The notes: a model not told the origin generated them from the sequence alone. A DNA stretch of 64,000 nt from an uncultured Acidimicrobiaceae bacterium (GCA_963774915.1 CAVZGR010000006.1:13463-77462), one strand, 5' to 3'; shown: positions 5,599 to 49,939, counted from the stretch's first letter. Program-made: numbers and translations.

Positions 5599-5620
5599 TG
5601 AACTACATCTTTGTAGTTCA
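5599..5620. promoter_or_regulatory. Perfect 9-bp inverted repeat TGAACTACA-TCTT-TGTAGTTCA, candidate operator of the downstream XRE gene
   Basis: Read directly. It is an AT-rich palindrome 60-80 nt upstream of the probable GTG start (5681) of the HTH gene. Confidence 0.45.
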
Positions 5621-5680
5621 ACAATCAGCGGTGCTCGGGCCTTGTGGGCTGCACACGCCCTGCCGTACCCTGTACAAGCA

Positions 5681-6088
5681 GTGGATACAAGCGAGTACCC
5701 AATTGATTCGACCGACCTCCTGGCCGGCCGAATCCGCGACTATCGGCACAAGCGCGAGATGACCCAGCGCGAACTGGCCGACCAGTTGGGCGTGACCCAG
5801 CAGTCGGTCGCCCGATGGGAGCAGGGTTCTCCGCCGAGGCGGTACATGCTCCGGGTGATCGAATCCCTGCTCGAAGAGGATGACGGGGACGATCAGCGGT
5901 CGGACCTCGCCGACATCATCGGCATCCGTCCACCGGCTCCTCGACCTGTGCAGCCGAAGGATATGGCCAGCGCTCGGGACGTCTACATCCGTGGCTGCCT
6001 GAAGCTTCTCGAGCGAGGCGAACGACTACCGAATCGAGTGCTTCTGCTGTTGGCTGACGAGCTCGGTTGGGGCGCCGACGAGAGCTGA
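5681..6088 (+). CDS. XRE-family helix-turn-helix transcriptional regulator
   Basis: HTH_3-type motif REMTQRELADQLGVTQQSVARWEQG. The ORF is open from 5594, but that start would bury the palindrome inside the coding sequence. GTG 5681 is in frame. Confidence 0.75.
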   Translation: MDTSEYPIDSTDLLAGRIRDYRHKREMTQRELADQLGVTQQSVARWEQGSPPRRYMLRVIESLLEEDDGDDQRSDLADIIGIRPPAPRPVQPKDMASARDVYIRGCLKLLERGERLPNRVLLLLADELGWGADES

Positions 6089-6260
6089 CGACGCCGCCCG
6101 AGTGGCGCAAATGCGGGCTCTCTGAGCCTGGGCTGAGCGGGTCCAACTCCTCCAGTCAGGCTCGGAACGATGGTCATTGCCCGCTCGGCTCTGAACTTTC
6201 CCCGCTGGCTTCGCTCATGCGACCATGGCTCCTTGCTCCCAGATCCGAGAGGAACCAACG

Positions 6261-6925
6261 ATGAGCGGTCTGCTCCTAGCCGATGAACGAGAAGCCGTAG
6301 CCAGCGCGAGCCGCCATTTGGCCAAGGAGGGACTGGTCATCGGGACGGCCGGGAACATCTCTGCCCGCAATGGTGACCACGTCGCCGTTACCCCCACTGG
6401 GGCGGACCTGGGCACGGTGACCGCCGAGATGGTGACCGTCATTGATCTGGACGGCAATGTCGTGGACGGCGATCTCGCTCCCACATCCGAGGTTCCGCTT
6501 CACACCGGCATCTATCGGGGCACCAACGCCCTGGCCATCACCCATGCCCACGCGATGGCGTCGACCGCGCTGTCGTGCACCCATGACGAGCTGCCACCCC
6601 TGCACTACAGCTGCTTGAGCTTGGGAGGAGCCCCCGGACCGCCGCCTACGCCACCTTCGGGTCGCAGGAGCTGGCCGACAACGTGATCAAAGCGCTCGAG
6701 GGGCGCAACGCAGCCATGATGCAGAACCATGGTTCGGTGGCTTATGGAAGCACCATGGATCAGGCGGTCGAGCGTCTCGAGCTTCTCGAGTGGCTAGCTG
6801 AGCTGTACTGGCGGTCGGCCACGCTTGGAACACCGAAGGTGCTGACCGACAAGGACTTCGAAGCGATCATCGTGGCGGCCATGGAACGCGGCTACGGATC
6901 CGTAAAGAAGGTCGACAAGAGTTAG
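6261..6925 (+). pseudogene. Class II aldolase/adducin-family protein (L-fuculose-phosphate-aldolase-like), one frameshift
   Basis: The N-part (ORF 6225..6686) has GTAGNISARNGDHVAVTPTG...EVPLHTGIY...ITHAHAMASTAL. The C-part (ORF 6683..6925 and upstream in that frame) reads TAAYATFGSQELADNVIKALEGRNAAMMQNHGSVAYG. The frames switch at a C5 run (6641-6645). ATG 6261 is preceded by GAGAGGAA. Confidence 0.8.
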
Positions 6926-7101
6926 TTCGCGTCATCGCTGCCGCGGCAACGTACGTCCTCACCGTTTCTCCATTGCTAGTCTGCCGGCGTGGTCCTTGCC
7001 GCCGTTGTCGGAGCCGGAAGGGGCGATGACCGGTCGGTCGGGGGTGCGGTCCTGGATTGAAATTCTGAAGATGTCGGTTGGCTTTGAGGGGGGGACATGA
7101 A

Positions 7102-8163
7102 ATGCGGGTGAGAAGTCGCCGATCGATCGCCAGGCTGTCCCTCGGAGTCGCCATCGCCCTTGGGATGACGACCATCGCGGTGAGTCTGGCCGCCGCGGCT
7201 CCATCCGCCGCCGCGACTTCATCCACTGGTCTCAAGCCCATGTCCGGTGCGTACGTCTTCTCGTTCCGGTTCGACAACAGGCTCCGGGACTACCGCCTCC
7301 ATGTCCCCCCCGCCGCGGCAAGCGGAAAGCCACTCCCGCTCGTGCTCAATCTCCACGGAGCCACGCAGAACGGTCAGCTCGAGGAGGTGGTCACCTCGGG
7401 TATGGACGCGAATGCCGATGCCAACGGGTACCTGGTGGTGTATCCCGATGGCACGAGAATCTCAAAGGTCCTGACGCCGGATCCCGTCGCCAAGAACGCT
7501 CAGTATGGCTGGAACGCTGGTGCGTGTTGCGGGTTACCCGTGACCAAGAAGATCAATGACGTCGGCTTTCTCCTGAAGGTCATTGCCGATGTGGCCAAGC
7601 GAACGCCGGTCAATCTGCGTCGGGTGTACATGACGGGGATCTCCAACGGCGGAATGATGGCCTACGCCATGGCTGCCGAGGCCTCCAATCACATCGCCGC
7701 CATCGCTTCCATCTCGGGTCAAGTCGAGTTGCCGCACATCCATCCCAGTCGGCCCGTGCCAACGATGGAGTTCCACAGCGTCAACGATCCGATCGCCATG
7801 TGGGACGGCGTACCGAACCGTAATCCGACGCTTCGCTTCACCGTCCTCCAAGGCATCCATCAGTGGGTTGTGGCCGACCACTGTCGAAGCAATCCGCACG
7901 TCGCTCCGACCATTGTCGGGGCCCCGGGGAGCATCTCGGCGGGGGAGACGGCCACCGAGATCACCTATCACTCTTGTGCCGATGGGACGGAGGTCGTGCT
8001 GTGGAAACTGACCGGGTCGGGACACGTATGGCCGGGGAGCACGCTCAATACCGGCCCGAAGAGCTCCTGGTTGTTGGCCGGTGTCGGCCGGGGGACGGTG
8101 CTGGTGAACGCAGATGAGCTGATGTGGCAGTTCTTCGAGCGCTATCAGCTACCCAAATCCTGA
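7102..8163 (+). CDS. Secreted PHB-depolymerase-family esterase (LpqC-like)
   Basis: Signal peptide MRVRSRRSIARLSLGVAIALGMTTIAVSLAAAAPSAAA. Motifs LNLHGATQNG, YLVVYPDG, WNAGACCG, INDVGFL, and the nucleophile elbow GISNGGMMAY. Confidence 0.75.
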   Translation: MRVRSRRSIARLSLGVAIALGMTTIAVSLAAAAPSAAATSSTGLKPMSGAYVFSFRFDNRLRDYRLHVPPAAASGKPLPLVLNLHGATQNGQLEEVVTSGMDANADANGYLVVYPDGTRISKVLTPDPVAKNAQYGWNAGACCGLPVTKKINDVGFLLKVIADVAKRTPVNLRRVYMTGISNGGMMAYAMAAEASNHIAAIASISGQVELPHIHPSRPVPTMEFHSVNDPIAMWDGVPNRNPTLRFTVLQGIHQWVVADHCRSNPHVAPTIVGAPGSISAGETATEITYHSCADGTEVVLWKLTGSGHVWPGSTLNTGPKSSWLLAGVGRGTVLVNADELMWQFFERYQLPKS

Positions 8164-35242: not shown

Positions 35243-35859
35243 TCAGCCGCCGGCCGGGTGCTCCACCGATGAGGACCGGTGCACCGAGACGGCGTAGTCA
35301 CCACCACGGAACGGGTCGCCGGCCCACGTGGCCGAGCGCTCCGGCAAGAACGAGACCGGCGGCGCGGCAGTGCTCGTCGTAGTCCTCGAGCGTGTAGCCG
35401 CGATCGAGCTGGAACCCGCTGACGAGCAGTCCGTCGGCGCGCCAGATGTCGCGCGCACCCGGCCACCAGTGGCCCCCGGTTGGCCGGCGGCGTGAACAGT
35501 GGGACGTTGCCAGCCATGACCACCACGTCGAAGGTGCGTCCGAGGTCGAGGACGGCCACGTCCCCGAGGTACCAGTCGAGGTCGGGGGCGAGCTCGCGGG
35601 CAGTGGCCACCATCGAAGCGTCGACATCGACGCCGGCGACGTCGATCCCGCGCCGGGCGAGCTCGCGGGCCACCCGTCCCGTGCCACAACCGGCATCGAG
35701 GACGGAGCCGGGCCCGAGTGCGACCACGAAGTCGGCCTCGCCGTGCACGTCGACACCGGAAGCGGCCAGGCGGTCGAAGCGCTCCTGGTACTCCTGGCCG
35801 GACCACTGCCGGCCGGAGCCGACACCGCAGTCCGGCCGGCCGTCGCCGCTCACGCGCAT
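35243..35859 (-). pseudogene. Class I SAM-dependent methyltransferase, 2 frameshifts
   Basis: Motif I VLDAGCGTGRVARELARRGIDVAGVD, then DVVVMAGNV. The frames switch near 35440 (...GCARHL | ADGLLVSGFQLDRGYTLEDYDEHCRAAGLVLA) and near 35340 (| ERSATWAGDPFRGGDYAVSVHR). Confidence 0.75.
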
Positions 35860-36914
35860 CCGGTGGGAGGGAAGAGCGAGAGCTGTGGCACGTCGACTCC
35901 GGCCAGCGGCTCGTACCCGGGGAGCCGCGACATGGGCGTGTCGAGGTAGACCTTGGCCTCTGGCGGCTGGGCGAAGCGCCCATGGCTCCAGCGGATCTCC
36001 ACGTGCCCGTCCACCGACCCGGTGGTCCCGTCGGACCGGTGCCGGTAGACGGCGGACCAGTCGACCCTCGGCTGACCGGCCTCGGCCGGCACCACCGAGA
36101 ACGCGGTGAGCTCGAACTGGTGGCGCCATTCCCATGGGTCGGCGATGCGAAACCGCGCCGGCCGGTTGCTGCGCCGGTCCTGACCGAGCACGAAGTACGG
36201 GGCGCTGCCGATCCGGAGCAGCCGCCAGAGCATGGTCTCGGCTGCGGTGCCGGTCGCCTCGAGGTGGTGCTGCCAGCGCTCGGCGGACGACCGGGCCACC
36301 GTTCGGCACAGCCGCCGGTAGGCCTCACGCGAGGCTTCGTCGGGGTAGGCCCGCCCGGTGAGGGCTCGCTGCAGTATCTGCAGCTGGTCCTTGGCGCATT
36401 CCGAGTGCCGGTCGGGAAGGCCCACAAGACCGGTGGCGGCCACACAGGCTCGGTAGAGCTCGGCCAGCTCGACGGGCGCGCTTACCTCGTACCAGTCGGT
36501 CCGGTCCCAGCTGGCCGTCGGTGAGAGCAGCCCCTCGAACAGTCGGCCGGGCGACGCGTTGGCCAGGATGTCCGACTCGTACTTGCAACTCACCAGATAG
36601 ACGTGGTCGATGCGCAGGTCGATGGGTGCGACCTCGTCGCCGGGCGGTCGACGTCCTCCCGTCCATTCGATGCCCATGGGCGGTCGGCGCCGGAGGGCGT
36701 CGGGAGCCTCGAGGAAAGCCCGGCCGTTGGCGAAGGACTGGCCCAGCTCCGAGCTCAACCGACCGCTGCGGCAGATGGCATCGAGGTCGGACCAGACGCG
36801 TTCGCCGATGTGGAGCGTTGCCGGCCGGGCGGTGATGGCGGCCCGCGCATCGGGGAACGCCAACATGCCGAGGGCGGTGCCGAGCTCGGTCACCGTCGTC
36901 CGGTCGTCAGGCAC
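35850..36914 (-). CDS. Hypothetical 354-aa protein; candidate PD-(D/E)xK-type endonuclease partner of the adjacent DNA methyltransferase
   Basis: Intact, high-GC3 ORF, the last gene of the MTase cluster. It contains APIDLRIDHVYLVSCKYESD (a PD...(S)xK-like spacing). No family recognised, so the functional call is inference from context only. Confidence 0.45.
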   Translation of the reverse strand: MPDDRTTVTELGTALGMLAFPDARAAITARPATLHIGERVWSDLDAICRSGRLSSELGQSFANGRAFLEAPDALRRRPPMGIEWTGGRRPPGDEVAPIDLRIDHVYLVSCKYESDILANASPGRLFEGLLSPTASWDRTDWYEVSAPVELAELYRACVAATGLVGLPDRHSECAKDQLQILQRALTGRAYPDEASREAYRRLCRTVARSSAERWQHHLEATGTAAETMLWRLLRIGSAPYFVLGQDRRSNRPARFRIADPWEWRHQFELTAFSVVPAEAGQPRVDWSAVYRHRSDGTTGSVDGHVEIRWSHGRFAQPPEAKVYLDTPMSRLPGYEPLAGVDVPQLSLFPPTGCA

Positions 36915-36970
36915 CGGGGTGGACGCTCCCTGTGGTCGTCGATTTCCCGAACACTCGCAGAGCGGTCAGC

Positions 36971-37417
36971 TCAGCCCCGTCCACTCGTGCGCGGCCGACG
37001 CGCCGAGCGAACGCCGGCGTGGCCGGCCAGTCGCTCGCTGTCCGTCGGGTCGAACAGCACGACGACGTCACGAATGGGTCCGTCGCCGTCTGTGCCCGCG
37101 GCGGTGGCGAGCGCACGAAGCGTCGGTGAACCGGGCTGCGGTGCATCGGTCGTGAGGAGCACGAGCGGACCGAGGTCGCTTCGCTCGCCGTGCCGGCGCG
37201 CCTCGTGCAGGACGGCGGCTTTGCCCAGCGCCCGCCACACCACGTCGGGGCGCCGTAGCCCCGGCCGCGTCGCCGAGAAGGCGCCGCACAATTCGAACAG
37301 CCAGAAGGCGCCGTCCGCATCCCGGGCCCGGAAGTCGACGGAAAGTCCGAGGTTGCGCACGGCCACCCCGGCCTCGATGTCGCAGAACCCGCAAGCCTCG
37401 AGGATGGCCCGGGCCAC
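36971..37417 (-). CDS. Hypothetical small protein (~148 aa) between the DNA MTase and the 354-aa orphan; possibly a frameshift-separated C-terminal domain of the MTase
   Basis: The well-behaved reading is ...ALDVARAILEACGFCDIEAGVAVRNLGLSVDFRARDADGAFWLFELCGAFSATRPGLRRPDVVWRALGKAAVL...VLLTTDAP.... The same frame stays protein-like (REGERRRKAAKAKGRPRAAAGSAVDLRAATELRDGG) up to about 37570, overlapping the low-complexity tail of the MTase ORF. GTG 37417 is the first start downstream of the MTase stop. Confidence 0.45.
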   Translation of the reverse strand: MARAILEACGFCDIEAGVAVRNLGLSVDFRARDADGAFWLFELCGAFSATRPGLRRPDVVWRALGKAAVLHEARRHGERSDLGPLVLLTTDAPQPGSPTLRALATAAGTDGDGPIRDVVVLFDPTDSERLAGHAGVRSARRPRTSGRG

Positions 37418-37439
37418 ATCGAGGGCCTTGGCCCCGCCG

Positions 37440-38510
37440 TCACGCAGCTCGGTGGCCGCCCGGAGATCGACGGCGGAACCCGCCGCCGCACGAGGACGCC
37501 CCTTCGCCTTGGCTGCCTTGCGTCGGCGCTCGCCCTCGCGAGGGTGCGCCCGTCGCCCGTTCACGCAGGCGGGCCCGTTCTTCGGCGACGCGCTCACGAG
37601 CCCGCACCACGTAGCCCTCGTCGGTGTCGAAGCCCACGAAGTGCCGCTCGGTGCGCACGGCGGCGACGGCCGTCGTGCCCGAGCCCATGAAGGGGTCGTA
37701 CACGAGGTCACCGCGGTACGTGTAGAGCTCGATCAGCCGGCGGGGCAGCTCGACGGGGAAGGGAGCCGGATGGCCGACCCGGCTGGCTGACTCGGATGGG
37801 ATGTCCCAGAGGTCGAGGGTGGCGTCCACGAACTCGTCCTTGGTCACGGTGGCTTCGGCCGGGAGGCCGGCGGCGCGTCGGTCGGTCGCCCCGAGGGCAC
37901 GGTCGAACCGACCTTTGGAGGCGATGACCACTCGTTCGGTGATGTCGCGCAAGACGGGATTGGCCGGTCGCTGGTAGGTGCCCCAGGCGCACGATCCACC
38001 GGCCGCGTGTCCCTTCTGCCAGATGATCTCGCCTCGCATGAGGAACCCGAGGCGTTCGAGGATGTCGATGGTGTCCCGTGAGAGGGAGCGGTAGGGCTTG
38101 CGGCCGAGGTTGGCGACGTTGACGGCGATGCGACCACCCGGCTCGAGCTTCTCGAAGCAGCGGCGGAACACGTCGTGCAGCATTCCGAGATAGGCGGCGT
38201 AGTCGGCCGGTACGTGCCCGACGCCCAGCACTGCTTCGTACTCCTTGCCGGCGAAGTAGGGCGGCGAGGTCACGACCAGGGCGACCGAACCGTCGGCGAT
38301 GCGTCCGTGGCTGTCGGGATCGCGGGCGTCACCGACCCAGATCTCGTCGCGCGCCGCTGCCGGGGTGATCCGCGAATCATCCGACAGCCGGGGCGGGGTG
38401 AAGCGTGCGTAGAAGGTGGAGGCGTCGTGCGCCTCACGGCGACTGACCCCGAAGGCGGAGGTGGCGGTGGGACGCCGCCGCGAGGGACGGACCGGCTCGA
38501 CGTTGCTCAC
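37440..38510 (-). CDS. Beta-class DNA amino-methyltransferase (N4-cytosine type suggested by the SPPY motif)
   Basis: Motif IV ALVVTSPPYFAG precedes motif I VYDPFMGSGTTAVAA, which is the beta-class order. A typical ParB-less N4/N6 MTase core follows (EPGGRIAVNVANL, IIWQK, HPAPFPVELPRRLI). The last ~40 codons are Arg/Gly/Ser low complexity, so the true C-terminus is doubtful. Confidence 0.85.
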   Translation of the reverse strand: MSNVEPVRPSRRRPTATSAFGVSRREAHDASTFYARFTPPRLSDDSRITPAAARDEIWVGDARDPDSHGRIADGSVALVVTSPPYFAGKEYEAVLGVGHVPADYAAYLGMLHDVFRRCFEKLEPGGRIAVNVANLGRKPYRSLSRDTIDILERLGFLMRGEIIWQKGHAAGGSCAWGTYQRPANPVLRDITERVVIASKGRFDRALGATDRRAAGLPAEATVTKDEFVDATLDLWDIPSESASRVGHPAPFPVELPRRLIELYTYRGDLVYDPFMGSGTTAVAAVRTERHFVGFDTDEGYVVRARERVAEERARLRERATGAPSRGRAPTQGSQGEGASSCGGGFRRRSPGGHRAA

Positions 38511-40079: not shown

Positions 40080-40810
40080 TCAGCGGACCTTGATGACCAC
40101 GGTGTGGGCCGCCTTGTCGTGGAAGCCCTGCTTCCGACTGTCCCAAAGCGGGGAGAGGCCGGCGACGATGGTGTAGAGGCCGGCGAGCAGGCCGAGCACG
40201 GGAATCCAGATCAGGATGAGCCCGGGCTCGAGGACCAGGATGCGAAGGGCCGCTCGTTGGGGTCCGATGGCGCCTCCCGACGTCTCGTCCCGGACGGCGA
40301 TGCCGAAGACCATCTGACCCAAGGTTTGGCCGTTCGCTCGCTGCCGTTCAGGAAGGCGAAGTAGGCGATGTCGACGACGGTGAAGATAAGGCTGATGATG
40401 ACGACCCCGGCCACCAGGTGCGGTGCCGACCAGCGAACTGTTGTCGTGGCGGACGAAGACGGCGATGAGGATCGTAGGGCAGGATGCCGAGAATGATGCC
40501 GTCGAGGAAGATGGCGCCGAAGCGGAGCCACCAGCCGGAGAGCGGACGCCCTTGGTTGTCGACCGGCTGTGGGGCGGGGCCGTAGGTATACGGCGAGGCA
40601 GGCCCGGGAGGTGGAGCGGGGGAACCGTATCCGGAGCCGGGCGGGGCAGGAGCGGTCGATCCATAGGCCGGGCGGCGCTGGCGGGTTGCCGCCCAGAGGT
40701 GGTGCCGGCGGAGGCGGGGCGGGGGGTGCCGGCGGTGGCGGTGGCGGCGGTGCGGCTGGGACCGTGAGCTCGTCGTCGGGTCCGTCGCTGGGCGGTGTGA
40801 CGTCGGTCAC
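40080..40810 (-). pseudogene. RDD-family membrane protein with Pro-rich N-terminus, 4 frameshifts
   Basis: The path through three frames is VTDVTPPSDGPDDELTVPAAPPPPPPPAPP... / YGSTAPAPPGSGYGSPAPPPGP...GRPLSGWWLRFGAIFLDGIILGIL / PTILIAVFVRHDNSSLVG / APHLVAGVVIISLIFTVVDIAYFAFLNGSER / GQTLGQMVFGIAVRDE...LSPLWDSRKQGFHDKAAHTVVIKVR*. The switches are near 40675, 40475, 40425 and 40330. Confidence 0.75.
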
Positions 40811-49848: not shown

Positions 49849-49866
49849 GGCCAGCAGCCGAAAGAG

Positions 49867-49939
49867 TGCGCCCCGGGGGACTCGAACCACCCAACCTGCA
49901 GGTTAAGAGCCTGCTGCTCTACCGTTGAGCTAGGGGCGC
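49867..49939 (-). tRNA. tRNA-Lys (anticodon CUU)
   Basis: Hand-folded from the reverse strand: acceptor GCGCCCC/GGGGCGC, U8 A9, D arm GCTC-AACGGTA-GAGC, anticodon arm GCAGG-CTCTTAA-CCTGC, T arm GGTGG-TTCGAGT-CCCCC, discriminator A, no encoded CCA. My fold leaves one U-C mismatch in the T stem and a 6-nt variable loop. Confidence 0.85.

Follow-up and report, generated by a model that had tools for sequence, protein, structure and literature searches.

A candidate two-gene Type II restriction-modification-like module in the Acidimicrobiales with a methyltransferase fused to a nuclease-like domain

We analyzed a stretch of 64,000 nucleotides from an uncultured Acidimicrobiaceae bacterium (GCA_963774915.1 CAVZGR010000006.1:13463-77462), referred to here as the window, and in it a minus-strand locus that encodes a DNA methyltransferase and, downstream, an uncharacterized 354-aa protein (35850..36914) that we named P354. 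We read this locus, with a probability of about 0.58, as a two-gene Type II restriction-modification (R-M)-like module that is chromosomally fixed and vertically inherited across many Acidimicrobiales. According to this reading, the two genes would be co-transcribed. The product of gene 1 (approximately 512 aa) would methylate a specific chromosomal DNA sequence at N4 of cytosine or N6 of adenine, and P354 would be the cognate endonuclease, cutting the same sequence when it is unmethylated. The C-terminal domain (CTD) of the methyltransferase, a nuclease fold without the canonical catalytic lysine, would bind DNA or the partner protein. An initial annotation of the window had described the locus as an island in which the methyltransferase is followed by two unassigned, nuclease-like proteins, with a Type II R-M system as the conservative interpretation.

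Pairing of the methyltransferase with P354

The methyltransferase is predicted to be a beta-class N6-adenine/N4-cytosine DNA methyltransferase. Motif IV (TSPPYF, aa 81 to 86) precedes the S-adenosylmethionine (SAM)-binding motif I (DPFMGSGTT, aa 272 to 280); this is the circular permutation of the beta class, and the order VVTSPPYF ahead of DPFMGSGTT, from which the initial annotation had derived the same class, is indeed present. A Pfam scan returned PF01555 (N6_N4_Mtase) over aa 76 to 302 (E value of 8.9e-34; 117.8 bits versus a cut-off of 26.7), and the PADLOC profile MTase_II (PDLC03350) matched aa 10 to 314 with an E value of 1.9e-84. The closest solved structure, T. thermophilus TTHA0409 (PDB 2zie; E value of 5.8e-31), also contains TSPPY and is labelled merely "putative modification methylase." SPPY is the usual motif of enzymes that form N4-methylcytosine (m4C). 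JGI annotations label relatives of the window methyltransferase adenine-specific, and SPPY does not settle whether the window enzyme would produce m4C or N6-methyladenine (m6A). In the NCBIfam scan, the score for the CcrM family (NF050803) was 49.7 bits, below the equivalog cut-off of 830. Among the three open reading frames (ORFs) of the locus, only the methyltransferase matched in the Pfam, NCBIfam, and PADLOC scans; the small overlapping frame (ORF2) and P354 had no match. The PADLOC comparison that the initial annotation had proposed thus recognized the first gene and neither of the other two.

P354 occurs in at least 597 GTDB species. The counts given below for Acidimicrobiales loci refer to the best 80 of these species, all of them represented by metagenome-assembled genomes (MAGs) of Acidimicrobiales. 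In 69 of the 80, a methyltransferase with CTD lies directly upstream of P354 on the same strand, usually with a gap of 24 to 27 nt or an overlap of 8 to 11 nt. The pair also recurs in five unrelated genomic contexts, in which the methyltransferase is found with or without the CTD. One context, on a contig with 71% GC (L089), has the methyltransferase with CTD, a 104-aa ORF, and then P354 (36% identity to the window protein). In another (L090), a 290-aa methyltransferase and P354 (33%) lie beside a type I R-M system. The remaining three comprise a 314-aa methyltransferase with P354 (L091; 36%), a 316-aa methyltransferase with P354 between two GATase paralogues (L092; 34%), and an unannotated 314-aa upstream gene that overlaps P354 (P0238 contig; 36%). 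A different arrangement was seen near ligA in L007, where the methyltransferase with CTD is divergent from a P354 homologue with 44% identity.

The methyltransferase was always the better conserved of the two proteins, with identities of 93 versus 89%, 77 versus 68%, 63 versus 44%, 65 versus 36%, and 47 versus 33% for methyltransferase and P354, respectively. Restriction endonucleases (REases) typically diverge faster than their methyltransferases. A constant two-gene composition, changing surroundings, and a faster-evolving second gene together form the classical signature of a Type II R-M pair. P354 is very probably the functional partner of the methyltransferase, and we give somewhat better than even odds that it is the REase of a Type II system.

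A single gene for the methyltransferase and a nuclease-like domain

The locus holds three minus-strand ORFs: one of 356 aa (38510..37440), an overlapping frame that is open from 37711 to 36971, and the 354-aa ORF (36914..35850), whose GTG start lies 56 nt downstream of the methyltransferase stop. In the initial annotation, an indel within 37440-37600 was suspected of having divided a single polypeptide into the methyltransferase and the small protein. The suspicion was well founded, and the methyltransferase and ORF2 almost certainly constitute one gene of approximately 512 aa. At the loci of the closest relatives (L001 to L003, with 89% P354 identity, and L004/L005, with 68%), one gene of 499 to 533 aa precedes P354, and in its translation the methyltransferase domain is joined by a linker to the ORF2 sequence. 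Both parts are present at 73 related loci and are contained in one ORF (475 to 536 aa) at 62 of them. When the intact 531-aa L001 protein, whose N-terminal 327 aa are 93% identical to the window methyltransferase, was used as the tblastn query, residues 1 to 333 aligned at 38510-37518 (frame -3) and residues 312 to 531 at 37618-36974 (frame -1). In the DNA alignment, the repeat-like Ala/Lys/Pro linker of the window lacks 38 nt (6+32) relative to L001/L002. The frame shifts by +1 at about 37520, for which the simplest culprit is an extra C in gacgCaagg, and conceptual removal of one base at this point yields a 512-aa protein. A Lys/Ala-rich reading in the next frame, already preferred in the initial annotation, exists in 36971..37711 (REGERRRKAAKAKGRPR...VDFRARDADGAFWLFELCG) and aligns with the orthologues. 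The Arg/Gly/Ser tail encoded out of frame by the same bases (QGSQGEGASSCGGGFRRRSPGGHRAA*) has no counterpart in the orthologues and is not expected to be part of the real protein.

The split at about 37520 is likely an assembly artefact. In tblastn comparisons with their L001 orthologues, 6 of 11 neighboring genes, the methyltransferase itself included, were frameshifted: the CvpA/trypsin, RDD-like (two breaks), BNR-like, methyltransferase, small SAM-methyltransferase (two breaks), and pyridoxal phosphate (PLP) decarboxylase genes. The shifts map to about 41292, 40330-40670, 39135, 37520, 35438, 35339, and 34780; P354, HAD, ADH, glyoxalase, and the AMP-binding gene are unbroken. Such a density of indels in housekeeping genes favors assembly error over pseudogenization. 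Related long-read MAG contigs carry indels as well. In the contig of the closest species' reference MAG (L002/L008, MFD03399.bin.1.129), a 1-nt insertion in the CTD (approximately 5606-5680) garbles the last 130 or so residues of the annotated 533-aa methyltransferase; L001, a sister assembly, is intact. Assembly indels most likely explain the split methyltransferase and several neighboring "pseudogenes" of the window, and ORF-based annotation of so indel-rich an assembly will yield many false pseudogenes and split genes. With the small ORF recognized as the CTD of the methyltransferase, the three components proposed initially reduce to a two-gene module.

The CTD comprises approximately 150 aa and is preceded by a basic Lys/Ala-rich linker. 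Conserved in the family alignment are an invariant Asp (RARD) and the elements W-x-F-(E/D)-x-(C/S/A)-G, RPGLRR, and LLTTD. The AlphaFold2 (AF2) model (predicted local distance difference test [pLDDT] score of 86.4; predicted template modeling [pTM] score of 0.82) has an alpha-beta-beta-beta-alpha-beta core, formed by helix 5-19, strands 22-30, 35-42, and 48-53, helix 67-85, and strand 95-99. Its best Foldseek match was NucS/EndoMS (2vld and 5gke; E values of 5.6e-3 and 1.6e-2, probabilities of 1.0 and 0.99, and TMq of about 0.42), and further matches were to SfsA, R2 endonuclease, Card1, EcoO109I, AF1548, LmuA, Bse634I, BstEII, and SgrAI. All meaningful matches were PD-(D/E)xK nucleases, at marginal E values, and the model indicates that the CTD has this fold. 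The nuclease likeness proposed initially for the small ORF therefore holds for the fold; it fails at the catalytic lysine, which is missing family-wide. D43 never varies, and E or D occupies position 52. The Lys position is occupied by C, S, or A in 26 of 26 aligned sequences, none of which has the catalytic D...(D/E)-x-K triad of the superfamily. Because the triad lysine is never present, canonical catalysis by the CTD seems unlikely. With NucS/EndoMS, SfsA, EcoO109I, Bse634I, SgrAI, and BstEII, the CTD shares the core fold and the invariant Asp and conserved Glu/Asp on the beta2-beta3 hairpin. It differs from them in having Cys/Ser/Ala for the Lys of (D/E)xK and an Asp-to-Glu spacing of just 9 residues, and from NucS/EndoMS also in lacking the NucS N-terminal domain and the PCNA-binding motif.

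A parallel in architecture is CcrM, the cell-cycle-regulated methyltransferase of Alphaproteobacteria, in which a beta-class methyltransferase domain is likewise followed by a linker and a C-terminal domain and which is also vertically inherited within its clade. However, CcrM is an orphan without a REase partner, and the domain at its C terminus is SAND/PWWP-like rather than PD-(D/E)xK. CcrM's C-terminal domain binds DNA nonspecifically and holds the nontarget strand in trans (PMC6787082). By analogy, the CTD may be a noncatalytic or noncanonical domain for binding DNA or a partner protein. It is dispensable for the module, since distant relatives pair P354 with methyltransferases of 290 to 316 aa that lack it. 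The P354 and CTD families were unrelated in an hhalign comparison (probability of 0.1). Sequence and profile searches with the CTD returned just short fragments and methyltransferase-linked entries and no new domain context, in a listing that is apparently skewed to short proteins, as the known 500-aa fusions were not among its entries.

A free form of the CTD was observed in another lineage. In L006 (5001-5693) and L007 (5001-5717), a gene directly downstream of ligA encodes the CTD as a protein of its own, 230 to 238 aa long, and a full methyltransferase-CTD gene lies close by on the opposite strand. The N terminus of the stand-alone protein is a decayed remnant of the methyltransferase C terminus (FDTDAGYVALAEE...), and clusters of such proteins have 22 to 29 member sequences. 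The arrangement resembles the outcome of a partial duplication from which a nuclease-fold domain was left on its own. In L006, the interval 5853-8100 between the stand-alone CTD gene and the methyltransferase-CTD gene holds two genes, one for an NspV-like restriction endonuclease (PF27258) and one for a 490-aa protein without a Pfam match; no P354 is present in this locus.

Conserved residues of P354

P354 has more than 2,883 homologues, all annotated "hypothetical" and none with a Pfam domain. They form at least 497 clusters at 50% identity, and nearly all are 330 to 360 aa long. In the AF2 model of the window protein (pLDDT of 86.7; pTM of 0.81), a bundle of helices at the N terminus is followed by a small beta region (82-120) and a helical middle part, and the C-terminal portion forms a sheet of seven strands (240-336). 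In a Foldseek search of BFVD, three phage proteins (A0A7D7JQW9, A0A8D9C8Y9, and A0A1J0F9H5) matched with E values from 3e-6 to 6e-5 and a probability of 1.0; the 331-aa one of the three matched over the full length with a template modeling (TM) score of about 0.5. The P354 fold therefore exists in phages. As all of these proteins are uncharacterized, the matches are uninformative on function.

Conserved residues fall into two clusters. Cluster one (E83-W, P97-x-D99, D103, and S109-C-K111) includes the PD...SxK-like motif PIDLRIDHVYLVSCKYESD that the initial annotation had pointed out in the intact 354-aa ORF. P97, D99, S109, and K111 are each conserved at 90% or more and are located on the short strands 100-102 and 106-109 of the model. 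Cluster two consists of Q281-P, E306-x-R308-W-x-H311, and E319-A-K321. The initial reading of cluster one as the nuclease motif agrees with this conservation but is doubtful: the methyltransferase-paired relative L090 has H/R-C-N at the PD...SxK positions, having lost S109 and K111 and kept E306, R308, H311, E319, and K321, and the motif recognized by the REase profile is the C-terminal E306...E319-x-K321.

That profile, PADLOC REase_II PDLC03456, represents a REBASE-derived Type II cluster and has 387 positions. Among 38 diverse P354 members, 26 matched it weakly, through the C-terminal HVEIRWSHG...PEAK. In the best match (E value of 2.6e-6), about 105 residues of P0227 (221-329) were collinear with profile positions 272-375. 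The families are alike in the collinear C-terminal E-x-R-W-x-H-G...P-E-x-K and in overall length, but the likeness is weak and mostly confined to a motif of about 25 residues, and the N-terminal two thirds of P354 have no detectable similarity to the profile.

Two distant relatives are of note for cluster two. On a low-GC viral contig from IMG/VR (L094, 88-1680 and 2000-3103), a fragment resembling the P354 C terminus (AGQPEV...EVRWSHGKF..PESKLY) is followed after 16 nt by a gene for a 415-aa C5-cytosine methyltransferase; the opposite strand encodes another C5 methyltransferase. According to this arrangement, the C-terminal module of P354 also pairs with 5-methylcytosine (m5C) methyltransferases, which are of another class. 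A homologue with 36% identity was found among short co-oriented ORFs on a 3.3-kb contig with 49% GC (L088, 983-1999). It is the sole homologue seen in a foreign context without a visible methyltransferase, and it carries E306Q and E319A. The profile motif, the L094 fragment, the residues retained in L090, and the L088 substitutions all concern cluster two and favor a C-terminal active site. The catalytic centre of P354 is most likely the invariant C-terminal E306...E319-x-K321/R308/H311 cluster, rather than the N-terminal PD...SxK.

Table 1. Positions in the window of the module, its conserved elements, and two nearby features
Feature	Position	Strand	Basis or remark
Methyltransferase gene, part 1 (frame A, aa 1-330)	37521..38510	-	PF01555, PADLOC MTase_II, PDB 2zie, L001 orthologue; GTG start at 38510; ends in linker start ...GRAPT
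Methyltransferase motif IV, TSPPYF	38253-38270
Methyltransferase motif I, DPFMGSGTT	37671-37697
Frameshift site	37515..37535	-	tblastn with intact L001 protein and DNA alignment; frame A to frame B inside the Lys/Ala/Pro-rich linker
Spurious out-of-frame tail of methyltransferase ORF	37440..37520	-	No orthologue counterpart
Second part of methyltransferase gene (182 aa plus stop, in frame B): linker KAAKAKGRPR... and CTD of about 150 aa	36971..37519	-	Fusion in relatives, AF2, Foldseek
CTD element WLF-E-L-C-G	37283-37339
CTD element RPGLRR	37250-37267
CTD element LLTTD	37145-37159
P354, intact 354 aa, candidate restriction endonuclease	35850..36914	-	Homologue family, methyltransferase adjacency, PADLOC REase_II matches among relatives
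P354 block E83-W			Conserved
P354 block P97-x-D99...S109-C-K111	36570-36626		Conserved; contains the PD...SxK-like motif
P354 block AGQPRVDW	36057-36080		Conserved
P354 block GHVEIRWSHGRF..PEAKVYLD	35940-36008		Conserved
Small class I SAM-methyltransferase (Methyltransf_25/11)	35249-35847	-	Directly downstream of P354
tRNA-Lys(CTT)	49866-49939	-	Sole RNA gene found in the window

Inheritance of the module and alternative readings

The genes that flank the module are syntenic across dozens of Acidimicrobiales species. Upstream, the window shares GH15, CvpA-trypsin, RDD protein, and BNR-like protein genes with L001-L003 and L004/L005; downstream, it shares the small SAM-methyltransferase, PLP decarboxylase, HAD, and ADH genes. 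GC content is 0.71 to 0.725 in the module region versus about 0.70 in the flanks (about 0.69 for the whole window), which gives the module no distinct composition. No recombinase was found close to the module, as the initial annotation had noted, and no tRNA; the only tRNA lies 11 kb away, with no integrase seen between. The description of the locus as an island did not survive, and we rejected a mobile island on the basis of ordinary GC, the lack of a tRNA or recombinase close by, and conserved synteny. The start of the small SAM-methyltransferase overlaps the P354 stop by 4 nt in relatives, and the gene is present in most syntenic loci, including some without the methyltransferase. We rejected it as a member of the module, outside which it probably belongs, because neither the L048 clade nor any of the distant contexts has it.

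Compared with orthodox Type II systems whose methyltransferases are beta-class m4C or m6A enzymes (PvuII, RsrI, and MboII), the locus is alike in that motif IV (SPPY) precedes motif I, in that the methyltransferase is closely followed by a partner gene in the same orientation and of a size usual for REases, and in that the pair moves as a unit between contexts with the partner evolving faster. It differs in that the partner matches no recognized REase family or solved structure, in the extra nuclease-fold domain of the methyltransferase, and in vertical inheritance within a core neighborhood, where the putative REase outlasts the adjacent methyltransferase in whole clades. Fused Type IIB/IIC/IIG enzymes (BcgI and MmeI) likewise have a nuclease fold and a methyltransferase on one chain with a second protein adjoining. 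Their nuclease domain lies at the N terminus and is catalytically intact, their methyltransferase is gamma-class, and specificity domains are attached or separate. The locus has the order beta-class methyltransferase and then a Lys-less nuclease-like fold, and relatives pair P354 with methyltransferases that lack the CTD. Dam/MutH, a domesticated R-M pair, offers an analogy only: a clade has kept, by vertical inheritance, a methyltransferase together with a partner derived from a REase. Dam and MutH are encoded by unlinked genes and are tied to MutS/MutL; no MutS/MutL link was seen at the window locus.

Several observations weigh against a Type II R-M-like module. P354 had no Pfam or NCBIfam match, phmmer and profile searches against PDB sequences gave nothing below an E value of 0.09, and a Foldseek search of its model against the PDB gave nothing below 0.05 and no nuclease fold, despite the confidence of the model; structural comparison of the two unassigned proteins, as the initial annotation had proposed, was thus informative for the CTD and returned no PDB match for P354. 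The window protein did not reach an E value below 1 against PDLC03456, and the short span of most matches from other members counts in the same direction. In 11 of the 80 species, P354 is intact and no methyltransferase is found within 6 kb. Eight of the 11 have the usual flanks, with the BNR-like gene abutting P354 and the methyltransferase cleanly absent; in three, a solitary P354 lies among thiolase, TauD, AMP-binding, and DUF72 genes. A neighbor-joining tree placed these P354s in a five-species clade, a three-species clade, and three single branches, and since multispecies clades share the methyltransferase-less state, this state is old. All 11 proteins keep every conserved residue. An active REase is hard to reconcile with the loss of its methyltransferase, unless a methyltransferase of the same specificity is encoded elsewhere or P354 is nonlethal alone. 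A location elsewhere in the genome is possible because L006/L007 have a second, ligA-linked position. Synteny of the unassigned genes in genomes that lack the methyltransferase had been named in the initial annotation as evidence against its interpretation, and it was found in part, namely, in these eight species. In addition, the module is inherited vertically in a conserved core neighborhood, P354 diverges at a rate similar to that of its housekeeping neighbors, and tblastn did not find it in plasmid or phage collections, all of which is atypical for R-M systems. Finally, no system-specific palindrome avoidance was detected in the window and in approximately 0.83 Mb of pooled related loci compared with and without the methyltransferase. 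CGCGCG is strongly underrepresented in the whole window (5 observed versus 23 expected), and CTAG has an observed/expected ratio of 0.23; this generic depletion also marks related loci, whether or not they carry the methyltransferase, so that it can neither be ascribed to the module nor point to a target site. A literature search for R-M systems of Acidimicrobiales returned nothing specific. The Type II interpretation given initially is nonetheless the best available, with the recurrence of the pair in unrelated contexts and the weak REase_II matches on its side and the 11 species with P354 but no methyltransferase against it.

The pattern of inheritance would be expected if the module were a domesticated descendant of an R-M system, with a chromosomal rather than a defensive role: MutH/Dam-like reading or nicking at a (hemi)methylated or unmethylated site, or epigenetic regulation, with the CTD aiding DNA handling. 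We regard this as unlikely, though it accommodates a fixed position between housekeeping genes in at least 69 species with P354 identities of 52 to 89%, conservation of P354 comparable to that of its neighbors, the absence of mobile-element signatures and of plasmid or phage copies in the searched collections, and the survival of P354, its invariant residues all in place, over several speciations that followed the loss of the adjacent methyltransferase. The best structural neighbor of the CTD, the mismatch-repair nuclease NucS/EndoMS, fits as well, but this likeness is at the level of the generic fold (TM score of 0.42; E value of 5.6e-3). The pair is also an isolated two-gene cassette in unrelated contexts, once beside a type I R-M system, which is classical R-M behavior; P354, with about 600 species in all, is far from universal, and the window has no link to repair or replication genes. 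A bolder version, which we consider speculative and decidedly doubtful, is that an R-M system was domesticated early in an Acidimicrobiales lineage, that P354 founds a nuclease fold without a PDB neighbor and with a chromosomal role (methylation-guided nicking, repair, or regulation), and that the methyltransferase recruited an inactivated NucS-like fold as a DNA clamp. Early domestication would explain why whole clades keep a fully conserved P354 after losing the adjacent methyltransferase.

The lack of a nuclease family or fold match for P354 could instead mean that it is no nuclease but an accessory subunit of the methyltransferase, acting in target recognition, regulation, or binding of methylated DNA, with any nuclease activity coming from the CTD. 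A nuclease fold is demonstrable in the CTD and in no other part of the module, and the two genes are tightly coupled in translation. However, modules that pair P354 with a CTD-less methyltransferase of 290 to 316 aa would then hold no nuclease, and the CTD itself has no catalytic Lys. REase_II profile matches and the pairing of a P354-like fragment with a C5 methyltransferase on a phage contig are unexpected for a specificity subunit of a beta-class enzyme, and beta-class Type II methyltransferases have their own target-recognition region; we consider an accessory role quite improbable. More remote still, and highly improbable, is a genuine, possibly regulatory frameshift within a real three-component defense system whose proteins would be the methyltransferase, ORF2 translated on its own as a small nuclease, and P354. 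The stand-alone CTD proteins beside ligA and the many short database entries for the CTD would agree with it, but most of these short entries lie on 1- to 3-kb contigs or in indel-carrying long-read MAGs such as L002. The fused ORF at most related loci and the frameshifts in unrelated housekeeping genes throughout the window speak against it, and translation from the sole in-frame start beyond the shift, the GTG at DVAR, would leave out the first helix of the CTD.

The R-M architecture of the locus is ordinary; what is unusual is the uncharacterized REase-like family, the fusion to a degenerate nuclease, and the long-term vertical inheritance. If P354 were confirmed as an endonuclease, a large unnamed REase family would be added, with the clusters and species counted above. 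Its confidently modeled fold lacks any solved relative, and the motif that is likely to be catalytic (E...ExK, with R and H invariant) can be put to a direct test. The fusion of the methyltransferase to its CTD parallels the DNA-holding C-terminal domain of CcrM; to our knowledge, a nuclease fold without its lysine has not been described as a fusion partner of beta-class methyltransferases. Clade-wide vertical inheritance, together with clades that have lost the methyltransferase, would make this module a case for the fixation or domestication of an R-M system in uncultured soil Actinomycetota.

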